64,000 nucleotides of DNA from Massalongia carnosa (taxonomy: Eukaryota): positions 248,001-312,000 of the forward strand of contig OZ287084.1 of NCBI GenBank assembly GCA_965645245.1, given 5' to 3'. The notes under the pieces were generated by a model that was not told the DNA's origin, did no database searches, and saw only the letters and a program-made list of their open reading frames with translations. The position numbers and the translations under genes were made by a program. Below, in pieces: positions 1 to 61,009 of this stretch. Numbering within the stretch: position 1 is the stretch's first letter; each line of letters begins with the position of its first letter.

Positions 1-528
1 TACCTTGATCCATACACTTTTGCTGATGTCAGTGGTCCCGTCAGATGGCAGCATGACGAATGCTGTGCCGGCCGTCTTCTCCGCAAAGGCCTGAGAGAAT
101 CGTGTCGCGAATTTGGGGTATCCGGAATACTGGTCATTTTTGTCGGTAAAGCCAGCTGGGTAGGCGTCACGAACGAGTTTAAGGCCCTTTTTATCAGCGA
201 AGTCTTGTGGTTTATCTTCGTGCTTCCCGACTTTGGAGTAAAATAATGATACGTCCGCTGCGACGCTGCATTTTGATCGGCACTCGTCGATTCCTGGATA
301 TTTATCCTCCAGAAACGAGATGCCATTGGAAATTAGGTCGATCTTGCCGCCGGCTATGTTGTCGTTCCATTCTGGATCATCGATAGAGCTGTCTGGTTGC
401 TCACCTTCCTGAGGAAATGGTACCGATGAGACAATGGTACCATGCAAAATCGCCAACAGTAAGGATGTTGTAATGAGGTAGGACAAGTGCTTGAGCAAAG
501 TTCCGGAACGATGTGTGGGTATTTTCAT
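1..528 (-). CDS. Secreted protein, putative ADP-ribosyl cyclase/CD38-like NAD+ glycohydrolase fold (3' end runs off the window)
   Basis: Not in the ORF track. Open frame from ATG at 528 to position 1 (176 codons): MKIPTHRSGTLLKHLSYLITTSLLLAILHGTIVSSVPFPQ (hydrophobic signal)...SLFYSKVG...DFADKKGLKLVRD...FATRFSQAFAEKTAGTAFVMLPSDGTTDISKSVWIKV. The ORF is solid; the fold call is by motif recognition. Confidence 0.7.
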   Translation of the reverse strand, partial: MKIPTHRSGTLLKHLSYLITTSLLLAILHGTIVSSVPFPQEGEQPDSSIDDPEWNDNIAGGKIDLISNGISFLEDKYPGIDECRSKCSVAADVSLFYSKVGKHEDKPQDFADKKGLKLVRDAYPAGFTDKNDQYSGYPKFATRFSQAFAEKTAGTAFVMLPSDGTTDISKSVWIKV

Positions 529-1766: not shown

Positions 1767-2620
1767 ATGTCTTCGCAATCTAAAGACAATTTATTGGCTG
1801 CATGCGCAGCGGGAGATCTTGAGCGAGTACGTGAGCTATACCACAACACCTTTTCGGATTCTGACGAAGATGCGTTACTCAATGCCATGACACTGAAGGC
1901 GGCTGAGAACGGTCACGCAGAAGTGGTGCGATTTTGCCTAGAGCGAGGCGCGAAACCGGAATTTACAGTTATCAATGAAGCAACCGAATACCCCGAAGTC
2001 TTCAAGATACTTGTAACTGCTGGGGGTCTAGATGTCAATTATGACCTGGAAACAGCAGGCGATATGCTGATCAATGCGGTTTGGGAACTCAAGGTTCGTA
2101 CCCATACTCGATCTAACAATGATCCTCTCAGAGTCTGATTCAACCTCATCAGCGTGAATTCGTCGAATGGCTTCTAGAGCATGGGGCAGATCCAAACTCC
2201 GGCCATCTAATGGCAGATTCTACTAGCGCAATCACCGCGGCAGCAGAACGGGGAAATCTCGCACTTGCCGAGCTCCTTGTCAAGCATGGTGCGAAAGTCT
2301 CTGGCTCGGGGGCACTGGCCGGCGCTGCGGAGAGAGGCAACCTGGATATGGTTCGATGGCTATTGGATCACGGTGCTGATCTGGACGAAGTAGGCGTGCA
2401 CGACTACGGCGATCGCCGCAAGAAGAAGTACGAGGGAACTGCTTTACACAAGGCTGCTGCCAAGGGCAACATTGAGATAGCGAGGCTTCTTGTTGATCGA
2501 GGCGCGAATTTGAAAATCGTTGATCCTATGGGTCGAACGCCTTGGACAAGAGCGAAGGAAGAGGATCAACGACAAGTTGTGGAGTTTTTGGAGTCAATAG
2601 AAGGAAAGACATCAAGTTAA
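1767..2620 (+). CDS. Ankyrin-repeat protein (~264 aa, 2 exons: 1767-2093, 2153-2620)
   Basis: ANK motifs AAENGHAEVVRFCLERGA, AAERGNLDMVRWLLDHGAD, TALHKAAAKGNIEIARLLVDRGA. A GT..AG intron at 2094-2152 joins the two track ORFs in frame. Confidence 0.9.
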
Positions 2621-3652
2621 GTCAAGAGTTAGTGCTTGAAATTAATTGATCACTTGATATACAATACTAAAATTGAGAGAATAGTTTATCTGTTTATTAT
2701 CTGCAGAGATTTTAGCAAAAGACGATGATCATGATGTATTCATACTCCGATATGTCACCGGCTGAAGGCCGGCCCATGCGGGCAAAGCTATTTAAGTTAT
2801 ATTACATGGAAACCCTTTTTCAGATTTAAAAATCATATTCCTTAACACTTGTTCGATGTGACATCGAATCGACGTCGAGCAGAAAACGCAGAACGAAAAT
2901 CAAGCGAGAATTGTAACGTCTTGTAAGATAAGAAGAATAAAATAAGTGAAATTGCTGATTGTACAATAATGTATATATCAATGAAAATTGAATCCAAAAA
3001 TTTCTTATCATTAGTCTAGCAGTTGGGAGGATTTCCAAAATGATCAACACATCCACACAAGACCGTGAGAGACGCAAGAAGGAGCAGGAGAAGACGATAA
3101 AGCTCTTGGGAGCAAAGATAGATGAGTATTTAAAGCCTGGCAACAGCTTAGGAGACCCGGTGGCGCACTCTCTGTTAAATGAGGTAAAAGCCACGTTGCA
3201 GACGCAGATCCATATAAACTCGGAAAACGAGGACTCCGGCATGGTGGCGGAATCCCTACGGGACATAAAGAACGCACTCAATCGCATGGAAGGCGTTAGA
3301 AAGAACAACGAGCCCACCACAAGCTACGCCACCGCGGCAACCCCATTGGCATCACGAGACCAAGTCGGGCCCAACCCAACATACAACCTAAGGCACCCAA
3401 GACCCCAAAAAACCAAAGAACCATCCCCTAGCGAGGCCAAAAGAGCCCGGGAGATCACACTACGACTCACCAACGAGGCCGACCGGGAAAGAGTGAGACA
3501 GCTGCCTACTCAGGAGCTGGTGGAATCGCTGCAGAAAAATGTCGGAGGGATAGTGGGAATATCTCGACTTACAAGCGGGGACATACGGATCCACGCAGAA
3601 TCAGCAGAGATCAAGAAGACCCTACACGAGAATACCAAGTGGATCACCGCGG

Positions 3653-3766
3653 TGTTAAATGAACAGTTGACGGCATTGAAATTACTACTGAGGTGACTGC
3701 TTATAGCAGTCATGGCAGCCTGCAGGGCTGAGCTAGAACTAATGGGGCTAAGCGAGTATTCCAACA
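3653..3766. mobile_element. 114-bp mini solo LTR-like insertion, copy 1
   Basis: TGTT...AACA termini; 5-bp TSD CGCGG (3648-3652 / 3767-3771); interrupts LINE ORF1. Confidence 0.9.
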
Positions 3767-3964
3767 CGCGGTTGCGGCGTCAGCCACGGTCCAACGCCGC
3801 TCCTATCGATGCCACCAATCAGAATCAAACCATACAGACAGCTAACGCACGATTGCACCCAGGCCTAAAAATCACGAGGATCACCTGGTCGTTCAGGGCT
3901 ATCAAAGAAAAGAAGGCATACTCATCGCTGCACGTAGAAGTAGAGACCCCCGTGATGGCCAACC

Positions 3965-4083
3965 TGTTAAATAAACAGTTGACGGCATAATGTTGAAATT
4001 ACTACGGAGGTGACTGCTTATAGCAGTCATGGCAGCCTGCAGGGCTGAGCTAGAACTAATGGGGCTAAGCGAGTATTCCAACA
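3965..4083. mobile_element. 119-bp mini solo LTR-like insertion, copy 2
   Basis: Near-identical to 3653-3766 (2 substitutions, one 5-bp indel); its own TSD CAACC (3960-3964 / 4084-4088). Removing it restores ORF1 as MANRLITEGFLVDHE. Confidence 0.9.
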
Positions 4084-6560
4084 CAACCGCCTTATCACCG
4101 AAGGCTTCCTGGTCGACCACGAGATAAAGAACTGCGAAAAATTCGCGAAGAGCTGCAAGCTTACGCAGTGCTTTAACTGCTACAAATACGGACATATAGG
4201 AAAACGTTGCCGCAATCCTACGGCGTGCGGCCACTGCGCCGGCGGGCACCCGACCAACGAATGCAACCCGGAAACAACCGGTAGACAGAAGAGATGCGCA
4301 TGCTGCGAGGAGAGAGGCCACGTAGCGTGGGCCCCCACATGCAAACTCAGGGTACAAGAAATGAGCAAGATAGAGAAGGCTAGGAAAAGCTCTTCGCAGC
4401 TTTTCGCCACGGGCGACCCGGTCGTAGCAGGATCATTCAACTTTTCGGCCCAGGCCCCAACTGACAAAGAAAGCAATGCAGCACTAGGAGAGGCAACGGA
4501 AGGCCCCGTCAATGATTCCTGGAAAGTTGTCAGCAGCAGCAAGAAAAGAAAAACCGCCCAGCCGGCTCCCACGAAGTATCGCCGGTAGGCCCAAGCCGCG
4601 CAACAGGAACGTCGTGGAAGGATACAGAGATCATGAAGCCCATGAACATGCAAAGAGCAATAGCAAAGCCCATTCTAGGCAGACCACCCAATACGTCAAC
4701 GACGACGGCGGCAACACCCGCCCTCACCCGCATCAATCCTGCCGCCCACCGGCCACAACCCTCCACCCCCTCCCCGCCGACCCCCGATACACCTCTCCCC
4801 CTCGACGACCAAGGACCAGTAACCCGCACCGCCACTGCAACAGACGTAATGGAAGAAGGATGTTTATGAAGGACACAAAATTCATTAACATACTACAGTA
4901 CAACGTCAGAAAGGACCGAGTAAGTACAATGATACCACTTTTGGCAGATTCAAACACGCAGGACTACGACGTTATAGCAATACAGGAACCATGGCGGAGC
5001 ACGCACGCCTCGACCACTCTTAGCTCTCACCAAAGCGGATTCCACCTTCTGTATCGCCCCGGCGGCGACACACGCGTATGCTTCTACGTCAACGAGAAAA
5101 TCGACCCGGAAAGCTGGGAAGTAGAATTCCCAACCGCAGACCTATGCACGTTGAAATTGAACGTGAGCACCGACGGTGTTACGAGAATGTTGCACATTCA
5201 TAGCGTGTACAACCCGTCCCCGTCTTCTTATTCATCCACAGACAGCCCTTCCACGCTCCCGGCCGTTCGCCAGCAACTCGCCGCAGATGCACAGCACGTC
5301 CTCCTCGGAGATTTCAACCTTCACAATCCCTTCTGGGACGGAGTCACAAGGCCAACGCAACACGCAGCCGCGGATCAACTACTGGATATAGTAGAAGAAT
5401 TCGATCTTTCATTGACACTGCCAAAAGGGACCGTTACATGGGAGGCCCGGAACTCTTTTAGCACCATAGATCTAGTATTCATGTCAGAGTTCCTGACGGA
5501 AAGACTAGAACACTGCATGTCGAGACCGGAAATGAATCAATCCTCTGATCACATCCCGATTTCCACCCGTATTCTCCTCGGTAGTGAACAGCTAACGAAA
5601 GTCAAGCGCAGAGCATGGAAACTGCTGAACATGGAGAAACTGAGAGAGGCAGAAAGCAACGCTCCGTCCGTTACCCACCCCCGCTCCGCCGAGGAAATTG
5701 ACCAGTACGCTCAGACAATCCAAGAGTATCTTCAGAAGATCATAGCCGCCTCCGTCCCCTGGGCCAGACCCAGCGAATACGCGAAACCTTTTTGGAACGA
5801 AGAATGCAATCGCGCCACCCGTGAGACTCGCAAATTACGCCATTCCTGGTCGTCATCGCGCCACCTGGACGACTGGAAAGCGTACATGAAGTCTAATGAC
5901 AAGAAGCAAAAGATAATTCAAAAGCAAAAACGCTCTCATTCCGCAAAGAGATTAGCGCAGCCACCGAGTCGCCGCTGGGCATATGGAAGCTGGCAAGATG
6001 GGCAAAAGATAAAAGCCAGAAGCCCCGCGAGATACCGAAAATGCCGCCACTGAGGCACGGAGGGCAGACGGCGGAGACATTCGAAGAAAAAGCGGAAATG
6101 CTGAAAGCCAAGTTCTTTCCCCTACCACCGCCGGCGGACCTGAGCGACATACCTGGGTCATTATACCCCGCTGCCGCGGATTGTCCTATGATGATCACAA
6201 AGGATGAAGTGAACGCAAACATGCAACGCCTCAAGTCCGACAAGGCCCCGGGTCCTGACGGGATCACCAACAGAATCCTCAAGGCATGCTCCACAAAGCT
6301 AGCAGAATTGCTAACCCCTTTATTTCAAGCGTGCGTCACACAAGCGTACCACCCCCGCGAGTTCAAAAGAGCGAACACGATAGCGCTCAAAAACCGGGAA
6401 AGAAAGACAACACCAGCCCAAAGGCATATCGACCCATAGCTCTCCTGAACACAATGGGTAAAGTATTAGAAGCGGTCATCGCAAAGAAAATCACCCACAT
6501 AGCGGAACAGCATGGGCTTTTGCCCGACACGAAAATGGGTGCTCGGCGAGGGCGATCGCA

Positions 6561-33359: not shown

Positions 33360-33779
33360 AAATCCAACCAATCGCTAAATTTTGGTGTTCGGCCATTTTT
33401 GTCACGCGCGTGCGGGGTTACAATCGAAATCACGCTAAACTTAGTGTGATCAGAACATCGCAAGAGTAATTTGTCCGCGGTAATGTAGTTTGCCCATTCC
33501 GGGAGCAGCTAGCCTAATGAGGCTAATGTCCAGACCCCATGTAGAATCCATACGAATAGCTATAAATTTCTACTTCATTTCTCTTGTGATATCTCGTATG
33601 TCTGATGTTGATCTTACAACATATCTTGTTAATGCCCTGGACTCTGTGATTGTGCTAAGACGGGAGCGGTGGTGAACGCAATTTTTAAATCTCTAATATC
33701 TAAGACTAACTCGGTTGTATAAATAACATAGCAGCGTTCACAACACATTGTCTTTAAGGGTGGTAAATGTAACGCAGTC

Positions 33780-36700
33780 ATGTATTCAATCGCTCAGATC
33801 GCAAGAACGAAGGTTCTTGCTCATCGACATCTGAGTTTGTCGAAGCGCAGGAGGTGGCTCTGGGATGAGGCCCTGGAACGCTTAGAAGCCAAAGATCCCT
33901 CAAAAAAAGTGTTGCTTACAATAGGGGATAAAGTCAATATCTGTGAAGTGCATGCAGCGGTTAAACAACGACTGGATGAATGCCTAGCCAAGCAGTGGGA
34001 GTTCATCAAGAAAAACGGCGAGAGGATCAAGGTCCGCCATTACCTACAGATGATCGCTCATTGGATTGAAAAATTCATATCTACAGGCGACATCGCTGTG
34101 CAGTACGATCCTGCTCACGCAGCACTGCCTTGGGCTGCCGTTCGCTTCCTGCTCCAAGCCGCAGTGAATAGCGTCGAATCTTTCGATGCTATGCTTCGCG
34201 GTATTGAGATAAGTACAGAAATCATTGCGACATATGCCGAGCAAGAAAAGAAGCTGCTTCGTGGAGAATCCAAGAGTAAGAAACAGCTTGCAGATTCACT
34301 TGTAAAGCTGTATGAAGCCGTTTTGCGTTATCTTGGAAGAGCTGGTGCATATTTTCAACAAACCACATTCAAAAGGGTGTTGAAGGATTCGTTTCAACCC
34401 ACTCAAATGAGTGTAAATGCGCTACTTGATAGCATCCGGGATGCAGAGAATCACGTCCTCAAATTCGTTCGCTTCGTAGAGCACGAAGGTAATTGCCATC
34501 TCAATTGATTTAGAGAACAAGTTAACCCTAACAGATCAATTGAATCAAATCTCCGGTATCAGTAAAAATATATTCAATCTTGACTCACGTATGCGCGAGG
34601 TCGCAAATGCCTTGAATGATGCTAAGCTATCAGCTCAAGAGAAAAGAAGTCAAGTACATGAATGGCTTGAGGCTGTATCAACAGCCGACACGCTTCAGAA
34701 CGCTCAAGCTGCTCGTCATAAGGATACTTGTGACTGGATCCTACATCGACACGCTTTCCAAGAATGGACATTTCCCGTCAACGGAGATGGAAAGCCTAAA
34801 TTTCTCTGGATTCATGGCGGGCCCGGTTTTGGTAAAACAATACTCAGCGCAAGACTGGTGGGGTATCTCACGACTCACATGTCGATTCCTGTAGTTTATT
34901 TCTTTTGCGTCGCCGAGGAGGAAAGTAAGCGCGAGCCGTACGCAATACTGAAGTCCTGGATCGACCAGCTTGTTCAGTGCAACGAAATTGCATTAGAATT
35001 GACTTACGTAGAATACAGTTCAATCAAGACGCGTGCTCCAACATCGATAGAACTATGGAGGATCTTTAGGATGATTGCGCAGAGCATACAATGTGTCATC
35101 GTTGTAGATGGCTTCGACGAGTGTGTTGCAATCAATAAATCATCGCGACTTCACATGAGAAGTGACAGATCGCAGTTCTTGCAGTCACTGACAAAGGAAG
35201 CAGAATCAACCAAAGCACAAGTACTTCTCGTCAGCCGTGACAATGAGGACATCAGAGGGTCACTTATCAGATTGTCTTACGATAAACGGTTTGTCTTTTT
35301 TGAGCTTGCAATAACCTCAAGTGATACAAAGGACGATGTCTATTCATGTTCCATGCAGCGAGTACACGATAAACTAGCCAAAAAGTCTCAGAGTTTGAAA
35401 AATGAGCTTGCGATCAACGCAGCCCGCAGGTCGGATGGTATGTTTCTGTGGCTTGACCGCGTCGTCGAAGATTTGGATCCCGGAGAAAATGCGAAGACGC
35501 TGCGTGGGATAATTGAGGAGATGCCCTCTAAGATAAACGAGATATACAAGAAAGAGCTGGAGAAATTAACTACGCTAAAAGTTGATCAGAAGAAACGTGC
35601 GGTTGCCATATTGAGATGGATATCCTTTGCTATTCGCCCACTCACTGTCAAAGAGCTTGCTGAAGTGATTGCTGTCGGCGGTGACGAAGTCAACGACGAA
35701 TATCCTGAGGATGACTTGCCCGACTCATGGAAGGATGGGTTCGTCGATGAGGACTACGTAAATACTTTCATTCGGCGGTCTTGTGGATCACTCGTCAAGC
35801 TCCGAAGGCAAAGAGCTGATCAGCCTATTGCCTCTCACACAGTGCATTTCGTGCATTTTTCTGTCAAGGAATTTCTCCTTGGATTAAATGAATCTAACCA
35901 TGACCAATCAAGTCTTGAAGCGGTTATGTTCCCAGCTCGCGCCATCGAGCACGATCTTCTTGCTCAGCTTTGTCTTCGTTACCTGTGTTACGATGTATTT
36001 GACACAAATACTGAGCATAGCAAGCAAGATGATTATGGTCGGTATCCGTTCCTCCTCTATGCCGCACAGGAATGGCGCTTTCATGCTGTGTTTAGTCACT
36101 GGCATCTATATGGTAAGGATAAACAAGACATTTCTTTCTCAGAAGGCCTCATAAGGTATGCGAAAAGACTATTTGATCCCATGAGATCGAATTGGATCGT
36201 TTGGGCGAAGGTCTTTGAAGGTGAACAGAATCTTAACGAGCATCAGGGTAGTATAGCTGAAAGCGACGTAACCCACGTGAATGTCACACGGTTCGACTCT
36301 AATTCTGAACGTCTTGCCGATGAAGGGGACAAGGAGAGCAATCAAGAAGATGAAGAAGGCGAGTCTGAGTGTAGGATCGCAGCTACGAATCCAATGTATT
36401 ACGCAGCTCTACTTGGTTTGACAGACGTCGTCAAAGCGCTACAATCCCAAGGCTTCAAATGCGATGAACCGGGAGGATACTTTGGGTACCCGCTACAAGC
36501 TGCCGTTGTTAAGGGTCGTGAGCAGACAGCCAAGTATCTTATTCAACAGGGCGCGGATATGTTGCAGGAGGGAGGAATTTTCAACTCTGCACTCGAAGCC
36601 GCAGCAGCAATAGGTTCACGAACCATGTTCAGTATGTTACTACACCACGGAGTCAACGGGAGAGACCCACGCATGTTCAATCGAGTTGCACTGAATTACG

Positions 36701-38316
36701 TTTGCACCCATGGGTCTATCGATCTTGCCAAATTGGTAATGAATGAACCTTCGGACCTGATGGAAGAACTCGAATGTGGTGGCTGTCCCTTCTTCACTGC
36801 AGTTCGTTTCGGAAAGGTCGGACTCGTCTCCTTCCTGCTTGATCAAGGAGCTGATCCGAACACTAAAGGTCCCGGGGGGGAGAGTGTCTTGTATCGGGCT
36901 GTTAGGATTGGATCAAAGGAAATTGCCAAAATGCTTTTACAACATAAAGCCGCCCTAGATGCTTCAGACGAGACAGGTCATATGATCCTCCACGCAGCCG
37001 CGAGGAGAGATGATGCGGATATGATGCGGTTTGTTCTAAATCTTGGTGTGGATGTCAACATATCGACGGATGTAGTCGAATATTTCGAGGGATGGACCGC
37101 ATTACATATTACATCATCGGAAATGGGGTGTGCAGCTAGTGCGAGACTATTGCTCGAACACGGAGCTGATGTTCATGCCTCAAGTAATTGTGGCTTTACT
37201 GCGTTGCATATCGCTGCGGCGAATGGAAATAAGGAGGTCTTAGATCTCTTGTTGACGCACGGGGCAGATGTAGATGCGGAAACTAGCAACTATTGCACAA
37301 GCCTTATGTTATCTGTCAGTGAGGGCCATCTAGCTGTTTCACAGATTCTACTTAAACATGGCGCTAGTATTTTCAAGACCAGCATCGACGGTTCCACAGT
37401 ATTAGACGCTTCTCCAGATACAGGAGATGAAATAATTGAATTGCTACTCGGTGAACAAGTCCTATCCAAGATCGCAACATCCAGCAATGCTATTTCAAAC
37501 CGAAGCAGCGGAGACCCTTGCCAAAGGAGGAGCTGTATGGTCCAACAGTGTGTCTTTCGTGGCGATGAAGATCAGGCATTGAAACTCATAGACGAAAGCG
37601 AGGAGCCTGAAACACAATGTCTCCTCGATAACGCCCTCCTTGCCGCGGCAGCGTTTGGTTCAACACCAATTGTGGATACCGTTCTAGACAAGGGCGCCGA
37701 TATAGAAACCGTGACCTTTAACTTGCGGACATCCCTGCATCTGGCAGCGGCGCGAGGGCACCTGTCTATCGTTTCAAGGCTTATAACTCACGGTGCCAGC
37801 ATTCAAGCAAAGGAAGCAAGGGGCTCCGAACCCCTCGACTTAGCGGTGTCCTACGGTTTGTCGAGACTAGAAATCACGAAATTTCTTTTGCAACAGAGTA
37901 CCCCCGATGAAGACCATAGTCTTGTAATAAAAAACAAGCTACAGGCTGCCTTTGAGGGCGTCTGGTCCGGAAAATTCACGTCCTCATCCTCGCAGCAAGG
38001 TCAGATAGGCTGGACTAAGCTGACTGTCCAATTCGACTCGGAGAATGCATCAGAGCGGGTGACACTCTGGACTTCCGATGCCGCGGACGAAGATGGGCAG
38101 TTCCATGTTTGTGGACGTCTCCTACCGAATGGACAAGTCAAATTTGCGAGGCTCTACGAAGAATGTGGATGGCTTTGTCTTGGTCAATTCGACTCTGAAA
38201 CGCAGACTATTCAAGGAACATGGGGGATAAACGAGACTTTAAGAAACGGCCAATTCACCTTGCAGAAAGGCGAAGTAATAGAGGCAAATGGTTCGAAAGC
38301 TCCTCCAACCGAATAA
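33780..38316 (+). CDS. Fungal NLR: helical N-terminal domain - NACHT - ankyrin repeats - C-terminal beta-rich domain (exons 33780-34488, 34535-38316)
   Basis: N-terminal GDIAVQYDPAHAALPWAAVRFLL; Walker A GGPGFGKT; Walker B VVDGFDEC; GMFLW; RPLTVKELAE; multiple ANK repeats. A 46-bp intron with a CTAAC branch point joins the ORFs in frame. The true start is uncertain. Confidence 0.92.
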
Positions 38317-50628: not shown

Positions 50629-52691
50629 GACCACTTTCGGAATGCAGAGAGCACCCCTCAGTGCTTACCGGCTCAAAGACGCATTTTCAACATTTTACCC
50701 CTCAACTTCGACACGTCAACAATCAACAACATAATGGTCAATTCATATTCAGCTATCGAGGATCGAATTGACAGTGCAATTGACGCGTTACACGATGGTT
50801 TGTATACTAATTGTCGAGCTGCAGCCTAGCTTTTGACGTTGCCCCCTCGTACGGTTCAAAAACGATGGAATAGAGGCAACTCCAAAAGCAGTCGACCTAG
50901 TACCAACAAAATTCTGACGGATGAGCAAGAACAAGCTGTTCGTGACTCATCGAGCGATTGGACAAGGCCAACATGTGTGCGCGACCCAAATTTATCGTGG
51001 GGGCTGCAAATTATCTGATTCGTTTTGAGAATCGTACTCTTGGTCATCAGTGGCTGAAGCGATTTCTTGATCGAAATCCCGATTTTCATGTACGAAAACA
51101 GAAGCCTCTGCCAGTCGATCGAAAAAATAGTCACGACGTTAACGATATGGTTGAATATTTCAGCAAATTAGAAAGGGTGATGAGGGAAAAGGGAATAACG
51201 GAGCTGGATGTGACGAAGCGAGAGAGTGAATAGATTTCTACCATTGCGCCACCTGTCCTTCCCGACCAAAAGGCACAATACTTAGTCCGCAGACCAAGCT
51301 CTACTACTATAACTGGGACTCCTGCTATGTTCGCTGTAGGTCCTGCCGTCCGCACCACGCATGGTCGAACCGTTACACTGGATGTATGGAATATGGACGA
51401 AACAGGCTTTCGAATTGGATGCGGACGAGCTCAAATAGTAATCACCTTGGACCCACGAAAGCCTCTTCGTATGGCTGATCCGGATAATCGTGACTACATT
51501 ACTTCTGTAGAGTGTATCAGCTCGGCCGGTGACGTTATTCAACCATTACTTATTCTTTCGGGTATTCATATTCTTCATAAATGGTGTCAACACAACGATC
51601 TCGACGGAGAGACGTTGATTGGGACCAGCGAGGCCGGCTATTCAAATGACGATTTAGCCATGGATTGGCTTCGTCATTTCATCGAGCATACACGGACTAA
51701 AAGACGTGGAGCTTGGCTACTTCTGGTCATCGACGTGTTTGGGTCTCATTCAACCATACCGTTTTTGAAGCTGGCCGCTGAATATCAGATCGTCCTATTT
51801 CGTCTTCCAGCACATTCTACTCATTTGACTCAGCCATTAGATGCAGCTGTTTTTCAGCCGTACAAACACTATCATGCTGAGGCCATTGATCATGCGATAC
51901 GAATGGGAGACACGGAATTTGGAATTTTGGAATTTTTAGCCGCATTCCAGGAATTTCGCAACAAGGCATTCAAATCATCTACTATTCGTCATACATTCAG
52001 GACCACCGGCATCGTCCCATTCAATCCGGACATGGTACTCGACGTCATTCGTCAGAAGCAAGCTGCAGCCTTGGAAATTATGAATGAACCCCGCACCCCG
52101 AGCCCCCCACCTCTTCAATTTCATGAGCGCACCCCTCGAGGCCCCGAATCAATCGGAAAATTCGGTCACAAATTGCAAAGGGCATTGACCGCGGCCGGGC
52201 CGATCGGTGGATGGATGAATAAAAAAACAGTGGACGGTTTTCAGAAATTTATTAGGGCCTCTATTACCTCCACCAACACCCTAGATTTAACTACGCGGGA
52301 CCTTCAGCAAGTGCAAAAAGCCACCACATCGCGTAAAAGTCGGGCCGCTCTCGGGGGTCAGGTAGCTGCAAAGGGTGGAGTCATAAAAGTCAGTCAATGT
52401 AGAGAATTATATTCAATTCGTCAAAAAAAAGAAGACAAAAAGGCTAGACGAAAGGAACAGAGGGGGGCTAATAAGGGGAAAAAGGCCTTATCAACCCAGT
52501 TAGACAACGTCCGATTTTTACTAGGGCAGGGCCCGTTAGTAGAATAGACTAAGCTACAGATTTTGAACCCGAAATGAAGCTATTTGGATGACTTTTCATA
52601 AAGATCTGATTTTTTTAATGTTGAGGTGTTGAAAAATGCGTCTTTGAGCCGGTAAGCACTGAGGGGTGCTCTCTGCATTCCGAAAGTGGTC
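50629..52691 (+). mobile_element. pogo/Fot1-like DNA transposon 2 (degenerate, carries a solo LTR)
   Basis: TIRs GACCACTTTCGGAATGCAGAGAGCACCCCTCAGTGCTTACCGGCTCAAAGACGCATTTT; TA flanks; WNMDETGF, LVIDVFGSH, HLTQPLD. Confidence 0.95.
51209..51377. mobile_element. Solo LTR (169 bp) in the pogo 2 transposase
   Basis: TGTGACG...CGTTACA termini; TSD CTGGA; removal restores ITELDVWNMDETG. Confidence 0.9.
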
Positions 52692-58410: not shown

Positions 58411-59520
58411 TTACGTGGAGGAATTCTCTGCCACTACTTGAAGGAGCCTTAAGTGAGCATTCATGGCTTTCATTGCGAAACCATTCAGGTCGCTCCAATC
58501 TTTTCCTTCCCCGCGAGGCCCGCCATCAAATATCTCGGTAGAAAACCATCCACGAAAACCTGTCTGTAGTACAGCCTGCGCCACACAAACGACCGGAAGG
58601 TAGCCTCCATCAAAGGGTAATGGCCGGAGGCTTGCGCTCCACCTACCTCTCGGCCGAAGACCACTTTGGTCTGGACTCGGATCAAGCGGGGTCTCTGGTT
58701 TATATGCATCAGATATCTGTAATATGTAAATTTTCTGGGCTGGAATGGTCGCCTGAAGCTCGGCCAAACTGGAGTGGAACTTCTGCTCAAGTACTTCCCG
58801 ACCTCCCTCTCCTTCAATGAATCCTGTCTTGGTCGTTGGGTCCGCCCATTCCCCTCCAGCGGTCTGAAAGGTGTCAAGGCAGAGACCAACGTTGTTTCTG
58901 TCAACCTTCTGTACTATCTGCCAGACCTCTTTCCAAGTGGGAGCATACGTTGCCCAACACCAATTCTCATAGGCTAAGCGATAGCCTTTCGATGCGAGAA
59001 GATCAGCCAACTCTCTCAGGTCAGCGGCTAACACATCTTGCGATGAAGAGACATTTGGGGAGTCGGTAGAGCCGACCTTCATTGATTGAGATACAGTTAG
59101 CAGCACCCGCAAGAGTGTCCTCCATTCCCATACCTGAAGCATGTCAGTACCAACGGCTTCCATGATCCTGATCCAACCCTTGGCTCGCCTGAACGCATCC
59201 TGTCGTTCCTCAGAGTGTGGCTCCCAACCTTCAAAGTTTGCAAATGGCTGCAGCATGACAACCTTTAGGTCTAATTTTTCACATAACGCTTTTACGTCCT
59301 TGCCAGCAGCACAAAGATCATTAAAGTCCTGTGCCTGAACATCTCTGTGGTACATATTTGACGCGAAAGAGAGCAAATCTGGAAACCCCAACTCAACTCC
59401 CTTGAAACCAGCGGCCGCAATTGCTTCAAGCTTGTTCCCTAAAGGATCTTTGCTAGTTCCAATAGAGACGGTGGCGTAGCAGGTAGGAACCGCGAAGGGG
59501 GGTCGCAACAGAGACGCCAT
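58411..59520 (-). CDS. Xylose-isomerase-like TIM barrel, 3-dehydroshikimate dehydratase (QutC/Qa-4)-like; 57-nt intron 59133-59077
   Basis: KLEAIAAAGFKGVEL, MLQPFANFEG, LAYENWCW, VGLCLDTFQ, LQISDA, GFRGWFSTEIF. Confidence 0.82.
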   Translation of the reverse strand: MASLLRPPFAVPTCYATVSIGTSKDPLGNKLEAIAAAGFKGVELGFPDLLSFASNMYHRDVQAQDFNDLCAAGKDVKALCEKLDLKVVMLQPFANFEGWEPHSEERQDAFRRAKGWIRIMEAVGTDMLQVWEWRTLLRVLLTVSQSMKVGSTDSPNVSSSQDVLAADLRELADLLASKGYRLAYENWCWATYAPTWKEVWQIVQKVDRNNVGLCLDTFQTAGGEWADPTTKTGFIEGEGGREVLEQKFHSSLAELQATIPAQKIYILQISDAYKPETPLDPSPDQSGLRPRGRWSASLRPLPFDGGYLPVVCVAQAVLQTGFRGWFSTEIFDGGPRGEGKDWSDLNGFAMKAMNAHLRLLQVVAENSST

Positions 59521-61009
59521 GCTGGTTTACAGCGTTGAAACCAAGGCTGTCTGCAAACGCTGTAATAAGGATTTGGGCAAATGAATTGAATTATTTTGTA
59601 GATATTCTCAAGCTGGAAAAGACCTCTCACAACAGGTATGAGTAGGACCTAGGTCTATCCATATCCTTCAAGGAATTGACATCAGCTTTTGTCAACTAAT
59701 GTCATCGCTCCAAATGAACGAGTCATTACGTTTGATAACGTTGGACATTACATGTTACATCATAAAATACCGTTCTGTGCTTGTAATCTATTTCAACGGG
59801 ACCAAGTCGCGCTAATCCCATGATCCGAACGTCCCTAGCGAAGTCTTAGAAGGAATAGAAGCATATTGTCCATTAGGTTGTCTTCTATTTTCAATGATAC
59901 CTTCATGATGGAACAACTGAATGCGAGCCATAATCTCAATTTCTGCAGGAGCTCAAGGCTCCAGAGATCCAAACCGACTCCGTCAAGGAACAGCTTTCCT
60001 TGTGTCTGGGCGGTCCAGTTTAGATAGTTTAGCTCACCGTTCTCGTAGACAGAAGTGCTTCCTGTTGATCAAACAAAAGAATCTCCTATGTCACAAAGCT
60101 TTTCCTGTCTGCCATGGAGTTTCTTACCACTGGTTTTATCAGTGGGCTTACTTTTCAACGTCTTAAAGTCCTCCCTCGACGCGTCCCCTTGCCTAATCTT
60201 TATCACCTCCCTTTCTCGCAGCTTCAAGCTCGACACACATTCTTGGACCGCAGTGCTGAATGATGGTCAAAAAAGTTGCGTTCACTCTCGAATGAAATAT
60301 CATATCATTTAATCACTCTTCGAATAACAGTTATTGTAAACTACTGTCTGTGCAACTTCTTTTTTTTTTTTTTCCAGCAGTTTCATATCAATGGCAGCAA
60401 AAGCGAACATCCAGCTCGAAATGGTCGGCCTGTCGATTTTGACCATCACCGACCACCAATTCATGATTAGCCTTGAAATTGCCGAGGGTCCTATCAAAGT
60501 GAACCATGCTACTAAAATCTCTGAATATGCTCTTGGTGACTTCCCAATCACCCTGAGGTCTCCAGAGGGAAAATCTAGGTTGGATATCTAGGACCTTACA
60601 GACCGCTTAATCTACTCAATACGTTCGGTCAATATCAGACGGCGTACTCCTCCGAAAATTGTGGAGACATTACCTGGGGCAGAATCGTCCCCTCAAACTA
60701 AAACTAACTCTGGATATCCACCCCTCATTACTGAGATTAAAGTCCCTAGTCTTGGGAAGCTTCTGGAGTCTTCAGACACTAGGGAACAAGGCTTGGCTAT
60801 TTCACCCGTGTCACTCACGGTACTAGCTAATTTTCCATGTACAGCAGATCGTCTTAAGCAATTCCTGGGGAAATCGCTAACTTTTTCGTGCAGCGCCTGA
60901 ATCTCTTCTACTCGATCATGAAGGGAGTTCTATAGAAGAAGAACCCATTCGAAAACCTAAGCGCTCAAGCTATGCCGTCCATCGATCAAAGGCAATTGAA
61001 GATCCCACT

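Follow-up and report, generated by a model that had tools for sequence, protein, structure and literature searches.

A putative secreted ARC/CD38-fold enzyme of Massalongia carnosa with a variant active site and a mobile C-terminal module

The genome of Massalongia carnosa codes for P0002, a 346-residue protein from a real and intact gene that, as judged from its sequence and model, has the fold of the ADP-ribosyl cyclase (ARC) family and is probably catalytic. A fungal ARC branch is already known by prediction, from 2012, and the new elements appear to be the variant active site and a nameless, mobile tail behind the ARC domain. The reading that we favor, and consider reasonably probable by analogy with characterized relatives, is that P0002 has the ARC/CD38 fold, is secreted, and cleaves NAD(P)+ with weakened hydrolysis and possibly a cyclic product.

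An intact gene at the edge of the window

The DNA analyzed (the window) is a stretch of 64,000 nucleotides, G000:C18:248001-312000, of a 52-Mb genome assembled in 25 contigs, and the 5' half of the ARC gene (aa 1-176) lies at its left end on the minus strand (positions 1..528), with the frame open from the ATG to SVWIKV and zero stops. The remainder is outside the window, to G000:C18:247488, and neighboring DNA of the same genome carries the frame on to a TAA at L001:988-990, giving a single-exon gene (L001:988-2028) for which an intron is unnecessary. A first-pass annotation of the window had reported an open reading frame overlooked by the open reading frame track, and this is a genuine gene, missed probably because it runs off the window; about half of the protein, including its C-terminal module, lay outside the sequence on which that annotation was based. 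The motifs that it quoted are all present (LFYS at residues 95-98, DFADKKGLKLVRD at 109-121, FATRFSQAFAEKTAGTAFVML at 140-160, and KSVWIKV at 170-176), and its forecast of a catalytic glutamate at the codon past position 1 is correct, with the first codon outside the window being GAG (C18:247998-248000, minus strand), coding for Glu177. The E-x-P-x-L sequence that it expected there is E-K-G-I-L, with Glu and Leu present and Pro replaced by Gly, at a site that is Pro in 146 of 183 relatives and Gly in 11.

Three of four public runs span the whole reading frame with 0 differing letters and the fourth spans part of it, although one of the four may be the assembly's own source. A window or assembly artifact is ruled out by the identity of the three whole-span runs, an intron-split gene by the continuous frame, and bacterial contamination by the 1.88-Mb contig with its fungal-type transposons and NACHT-ankyrin gene, together with named relatives that are all fungal.

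Protein architecture

P0002 begins with a predicted signal peptide (aa 1-35; window 424..528, minus strand), indicated by hydropathy and a model helix at residues 10-30, with cleavage likely at VSS-VP. The best 19-residue Kyte-Doolittle mean is 1.82, at residue 18, and values past residue 40 are 1.09 or lower; a hydrophobic N-terminal stretch and a Pro at 37 are common to the homologues, and 16 of 33 have KR or RR within aa 16-75. We infer from these sequence features that P0002 is secreted, with the signal peptide lost after export. An acidic disordered linker or propeptide follows (aa 36-74; 307..423, minus strand), with a pI of 4.05 and a model pLDDT below 50 for residues 32-72, and then the alpha/beta ARC-fold domain recognized by structure and profile matches, of which aa 75-176 are in the window (1..306, minus strand) and which ends near aa 208. 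Outside the window, the gene translation continues with a Cys/Pro linker (about aa 209-234) and a C-terminal module (aa 235-346) that is all-beta in the model and has four Cys residues. No delivery domain was recognized with Pfam. The AlphaFold2 model, made from a 33-sequence alignment, has a mean pLDDT of 83.4 and a pTM of 0.54, with pLDDT about 90 or more across most of aa 81-210.

Evidence for the ARC fold

The model makes it almost certain that residues 75-208 adopt the two-lobed core of the ARC/CD38 fold. The first-pass annotation had named a structure search as a check on this assignment, and the AlphaFold2 model does superpose on the ARC family in both Foldseek and VIA. The closest structures are Pantoea ARCtox (PDB 9RO8; Z 15.3, rmsd 2.0 Å, 122 residues aligned) and Tac1 (PDB 9OUF; Z 14.8, rmsd 3.0 Å, 128 residues), with CD38, CD157, and Aplysia cyclase at Z of about 7.7 to 8.8. 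In Foldseek, ARCtox leads with E 1e-6 (TM 0.81, by target), followed by Tac1 (E 9e-6) and next by Aplysia cyclase and CD38, and all matches listed are ARC-family structures. VIA, run on 48,161 chains, puts ARC-family structures in its first four places (Z 13.8, 8.5, 7.9, and 7.6), and no unrelated fold scores above 6.9.

As a single sequence, P0002 has no significant match in Pfam or PDB. A profile of 16 fungal domain sequences, however, searched against 177,635 PDB sequences, finds Tac1 (E 3.4e-7), ARCtox (4.9e-6), and CD157 (9.3e-4), the last being the top animal match, with Aplysia cyclase at 0.017; because these three are found among PDB sequences, the ARC likeness is not due to chance. 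The Pfam family PF02267 (Rib_hydrolayse; curated cut-off, 25 bits) is matched by 21 of 33 aligned members at E ≤1, the best at 6.2e-6, but P0002 itself falls below the curated cut-off, with no match. ESM Atlas matches, which serve as leads only, are all below 0.9, with an ARC cluster at 0.84 and rank 10. The separation from TNT-family fungal NADases drawn by the first-pass annotation is borne out, in that P0002 has no Pfam match to the TNT domain PF14021 and the model matches ARC instead. A TNT search across the same genome also gave no match, with control genomes equally silent, and is uninformative. The accompanying suggestion of a distinct candidate thus holds against the TNT enzymes but not against the 2012 prediction, as passages of PMC3482391 already place Tox-ARC in Ascomycota and Basidiomycota.

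Active site and residue conservation

HMMER alignments place ARCtox W273/E299/W323/E356 at Tyr97/Arg120/Phe140/Glu177 of P0002, and Tac1 E516/W540/E573 at Arg120/Phe140/Glu177, with only the catalytic glutamate identical, a site unlike that of any characterized member; this register is derived from the alignments and secondary structure rather than from residue-level superposition. The CD38-like motif order previously read from the sequence is present but is weaker than claimed, with TLED replaced by LVRD and the stacking Trp by Tyr or Phe.

Conservation was scored across 183 near-complete domains, drawn from a set of 210 proteins of which 199 had a match, and gathered with a profile from P0002's own clade, a bias toward its own residues that extends to Phe140. 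Within this set the catalytic Glu177 (CD38 E226, Tac1 E573, ARCtox E356) persists in 177, and Phe140 (109..111, minus strand), at the site of Tac1 W540 and ARCtox W323, is Phe in 172 and Trp in 1. Tyr97 (238..240, minus strand) aligns with ARCtox W273, at a site that we take to be that of CD38 W125, and is Tyr in 123, Phe in 40, and Trp in 18. The paired cleft Trp residues of Tac1, ARCtox, and CD38 are thus lacking, with aromatic character retained as Tyr97 and Phe140. Ser145 (94..96, minus strand), the conserved ARC-motif Ser in the helix after the second aromatic, is Ser in 171, and Trp173 (10..12, minus strand) of the W-x-x-x-E ahead of the catalytic Glu is Trp in 162 and Phe in 18; Glu177, Ser145, Gly154, and Trp173 are all strongly conserved.

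Arg120 (169..171, minus strand) aligns with the hydrolysis-promoting second glutamate (Tac1 E516, ARCtox E299, CD38 E146). Its register in the HMMER alignments is backed by P0098, nearly a copy of the same genome's paralogue, whose Glu aligns here without gaps, and by the start of a model helix at residue 119. In place of the second-Glu motif, [ST][DE] or [ST]-x-[DE], P0002 has L118-V119-R120-D121, in which a one-residue shift could still bring D121 to this site. Position 120 is variable (Arg in 69, Ser in 22, Glu in 22, and Gly in 15 of the 183), and after removal of close relatives (n = 123) it is Arg in 26, Glu in 21, and Ser in 18, with Glu177 kept in 119 and Phe140 in 114. A quick tree of these 123 domains, which has 58 of 120 inner branches open and no bacterial or animal outgroup and is read for the small clade of P0002 only, places the protein in a five-row group (SH-aLRT 99), all Y/R/F/E at the four sites.

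Retention of Glu177 while most columns vary is the pattern of a working enzyme, and P0002 is very probably a Glu177-dependent glycosidase. The predicted Arg120, together with Tyr and Phe instead of Trp, argues against a fast, Tac1-like NADase.

The C-terminal module

The 112-residue module (aa 235-346) belongs to no Pfam family but recurs in the genome, where a profile search matches at least nine places at seven or more loci. One copy lies behind the ARC domain of the second paralogue. Another follows a GDSL lipase that matches PF00657 (E 8.9e-6), and at two similar loci, one of them scanned, the module follows an M35-like peptidase exon whose PF14521 match (E 3.6e-6) is below the curated cut-off. 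The loci L006, L007, L008, L009, and L011 carry the module with GDSL lipase, M35-like peptidase, and unannotated domains, and it is worth defining as a family. Of 199 ARC-bearing proteins, 49 carry the module, a figure that falls to 19 among the 144 taken from an unbiased representative search; many of the records counted end at introns or contig edges.

Five relatives share 71 to 79% identity with P0002 in the module and 32 to 37% in the ARC domain, a mismatch indicating that the parts have recombined, whereas thirteen close relatives are at 60 to 83% and 53 to 83%, respectively. Structure matches of the module, from the whole-protein model, are within noise (SlaA, Z 6.9; Alt a 1, Z 5.6, rmsd 4.2, 99 aligned; PevD1, Z 5.2), which does not in itself point to a new fold, the ESM Atlas has hypothetical clusters only, and a metagenome scan with the single protein gave one locus from 48 candidates, with the C-terminal module only. 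By analogy, this disulfide-capable tail would most likely hold the enzyme on a surface, either cell wall or matrix, a role proposed because other secreted hydrolases carry it as well. The module is a nameless domain that has been shuffled onto several secreted enzymes of fungi.

Distribution among fungi

Whole-sequence comparison yields 66 matching proteins among 1,440 candidates, including full-length relatives of P0002 at 69 to 77% identity. The closest named relatives come from Sticta, at 77% identity over 88%, and from Pseudocyphellaria, at 72%, ahead of further lichen genera; we take Sticta, Pseudocyphellaria, and the further closest genera to be lichens. The ARC domain profile reaches 927 50%-clusters at E ≤0.001 and 252 at 1e-10, and the best 150 of the 927 were examined. 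In one look-up of 20, the 7 that are named are all fungal (Peltigera, Peltula, Hypsizygus, and Tricholoma among them), as are the 12 named in a look-up of 43 (Onygenales, Xylariales, Termitomyces, Agrocybe, and lichens). By sequence, the named relatives are all fungi and mostly lichens, with other Ascomycota and agarics also represented, and they suggest a lichen-forming host.

Genomic surroundings and paralogues

The ARC gene sits in a transposon-rich region, with 10 of 19 scanned window reading frames matching transposon families. A dense nest of LINE-like endonuclease, copia, chromodomain gypsy, Tc1-like, and DDE_1 elements occupies window positions 2992-6053, 10300-32457, and 51234-52547, and flanking reading frames (L002-L003) presumably belong with mariner, gypsy, piggyBac, and copia elements, which they resemble. 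A copia-like LTR of 334 bp with TG...CA ends (L001:614-947; G000:C18:247114-247447) ends 40 bp past the ARC stop codon, where it could disturb the ARC transcript. It is a high-copy element, and the depth summed over it is very high in three of the runs. The 84 kb searched contain no second copy, so its partner LTR has apparently been lost.

On the other side, 1.2 kb upstream and divergent from the ARC gene, is a small ankyrin-repeat gene, probably of two exons (window 1767-2620, plus strand), which is a possible candidate for an immunity-type partner. The window also contains a fungal NLR-like gene with NACHT and ankyrin domains and a NACHT_N/DUF7708 part (33732-38316, plus strand), and an intronless reading frame for a xylose-isomerase-like TIM barrel (58411-59526, minus strand; PF01261, E 1.3e-36). 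A genome search shows a second paralogue with both ARC domain and C-terminal module (L010:1492-2877, minus strand; G000:C13 near 1608600; C13:1608597), which carries a long extension at its N terminus and has Glu-Asp at the Arg-Asp site of P0002, and a degraded ARC fragment with stops, from a divergent subfamily (L021; G000:C9 near 1977739).

Proposed function and alternatives

In the favored reading, a two-domain enzyme would be exported with removal of its signal peptide, and the ARC domain would bind NAD(P)+ in a cleft of Tyr97, Phe140, Ser145, and Trp173. By extension from CD38, Tac1, and ARCtox, Glu177 would stabilize the ribosyl intermediate as nicotinamide departs, and because the second Glu is replaced by Arg120, attack by water is expected to be weaker than in Tac1. 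The products would probably be mixed, with both ADP-ribose and an isomer of cyclic ADP-ribose formed at a modest rate as for Nac1. Provided that P0002 is active, we would put such a mixture at about even chances, and a cyclic product overall is rather doubtful; the altered active site may favor cyclic ADP-ribose messengers over plain NAD destruction. The C-terminal module would anchor the enzyme at the cell wall or matrix, and the likely job would be to use extracellular NAD from partners, competitors, or damaged thallus cells. Counting against this proposal, three of the four residues tested in ARCtox differ, with Phe and Tyr being apparently milder changes than Ala, and Arg120 is a charge reversal, unlike the Ala of Nac1, whose behavior does not predict its effect.

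One alternative, in line with the effector or antimicrobial role suggested in the first-pass annotation, is a fast, purely hydrolytic NADase toxin like Tac1 and ARCtox that the C-terminal module carries to or into target cells; we consider this unlikely. The two bacterial toxins are the closest structures, the gene lies among transposons, and relatives combine their ARC and C-terminal parts in different ways, as polymorphic toxins do; further, passages in PMC12605009 and PMC12356396 describe ARCtox E299A as still degrading NAD in vivo and weak Tac1 variants as still toxic. However, P0002 is missing the second Glu and has no recognized delivery domain or demonstrably linked partner gene, and Nac1, a standalone ARC protein with a signal peptide, is harmless in the E. 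coli cytoplasm (PMC12356396, in part).

A second alternative, which seems improbable, is that P0002 keeps this fold but works as an N-glycosidase or transglycosidase on a substrate other than NAD(P)+, such as NMN, nicotinamide riboside, or another nucleotide, in a pocket reshaped by Phe140 and Arg120. Consistent with this, Phe140 is near-invariant where the characterized enzymes carry Trp, position 120 varies freely, and the best animal sequence match is CD157, which prefers nicotinamide riboside; nucleoside deoxyribosyltransferases also appear in VIA at Z 5.2 to 5.5, within noise. The structural likeness is nonetheless far stronger to NAD(P)+ cleavers (Z 15 versus 5.5 to nucleoside enzymes), and the characterized close structural relatives all cleave NAD(P)+, according to passages of PMC12356396 and PMC12605009. 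That P0002 binds a ligand without catalysis, or that its gene is silent amid a transposon graveyard, is very improbable given 346 intact codons identical in three runs, full-length relatives 69 to 77% identical, and high conservation of Glu177, Ser145, Gly154, and Trp173, even with three ARCtox residues changed, the LTR 40 bp from the stop, and the degraded ARC copy at C9:1977739.

The favored reading can be extended to make P0002 the type member of a large clade of fungal secreted ARC proteins with a Y/R/F/E site and a swappable, surface-binding tail, synthesizing an extracellular cyclic ADP-ribose isomer for lichen signaling, with the Arg and Glu paralogues as cyclase and hydrolase; this is speculative and, taken as a whole, unlikely. 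If true, a cADPR-type messenger synthase would give lichen fungi a means of signaling to their photobionts and to bacteria of the thallus, or of manipulating them. The class in any case offers a route to ask whether fungi produce such messengers or turn ARC enzymes on microbes, and P0002 with Arg120 and the Glu paralogue (C13:1608597) form a natural pair for the role of the second acidic position.

Comparison with characterized ARC and TNT enzymes

The literature listings and open main texts searched yielded no study of a fungal ARC enzyme. The texts of PMC12356396 and PMC12605009 do not mention fungi, and the terms cyclase, NAD, ADP-ribos, and CD38 are absent from the main texts of two 2026 lichen preprints and PMC13127573. 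Fungal Tox-ARC domains were described by Zhang et al. in 2012 (PMC3482391, in passages on Tox-ARC) from Ascomycota and Basidiomycota, as acquired from bacteria independently of animals; those passages give no fungal architecture, C-terminal module, or experiment. P0002 shares with these the ARC fold, the Ser, and the catalytic Glu but has L118-V119-R120 instead of the [ST][DE] motif (PMC3482391, same passages).

The characterized extracellular NADases of fungi are TNT enzymes of Aspergillus and Neurospora, which are secreted or surface located, use a Gln mechanism, have no cyclase or base exchange activity, and make no cADPR (PMC7955114, in part). P0002 would likewise be a secreted NAD cleaver, but with another fold and mechanism, and would represent a second, CD38-like class with the catalytic Glu intact. 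With CD38, CD157, and Aplysia cyclase (PF02267) it shares the core fold, the catalytic Glu, and a presumed extracellular location, but it lacks their larger helical lobe, is 13 to 19% identical, and has no PF02267 match.

HopBY, likened here by description and not by sequence, has an ARC/TIR-like fold with W-x-x-x-E as in P0002 and invariant W301/E305, makes 2'cADPR, and, unlike P0002, is a Type III effector (PMC9963460, in part). ARCtox makes ADPR, and Ala at either Trp removed its toxicity (passages of PMC12605009); with ADPR from ARCtox, cADPR from Nac1, and 2'cADPR from HopBY, the ARC fold does not fix the product. Like Tac1 and ARCtox, which are bacterial NAD(P)+-depleting toxins, P0002 has a minimal ARC core and a W-x-x-x-E motif, but it is 16% identical to them, has Y/R/F/E in place of their W/E/W/E site, has a predicted signal peptide in place of a T6SS or T7SS carrier, and is organized with the ARC domain N-terminal and the module behind it. 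Tac1 lost its activity completely only when E573 was changed, and its E516A variant released cADPR (PMC12356396, in part).

The best functional analogue is Nac1 of Actinophytocola oryzae, which has Ala at the second-Glu site and makes cADPR and ADPR in about equal amounts, and which is a standalone signal-peptide ARC protein purified from E. coli without an immunity protein (PMC12356396, passages on Nac1). The same passages make it, like P0002, a standalone ARC protein with a signal peptide (predicted in P0002), no second Glu, and no immunity gene seen, although Nac1 is bacterial, has Ala where P0002 has Arg, and is likened by description and not by sequence. By this analogy, the design of P0002 resembles Nac1 more than Tac1.
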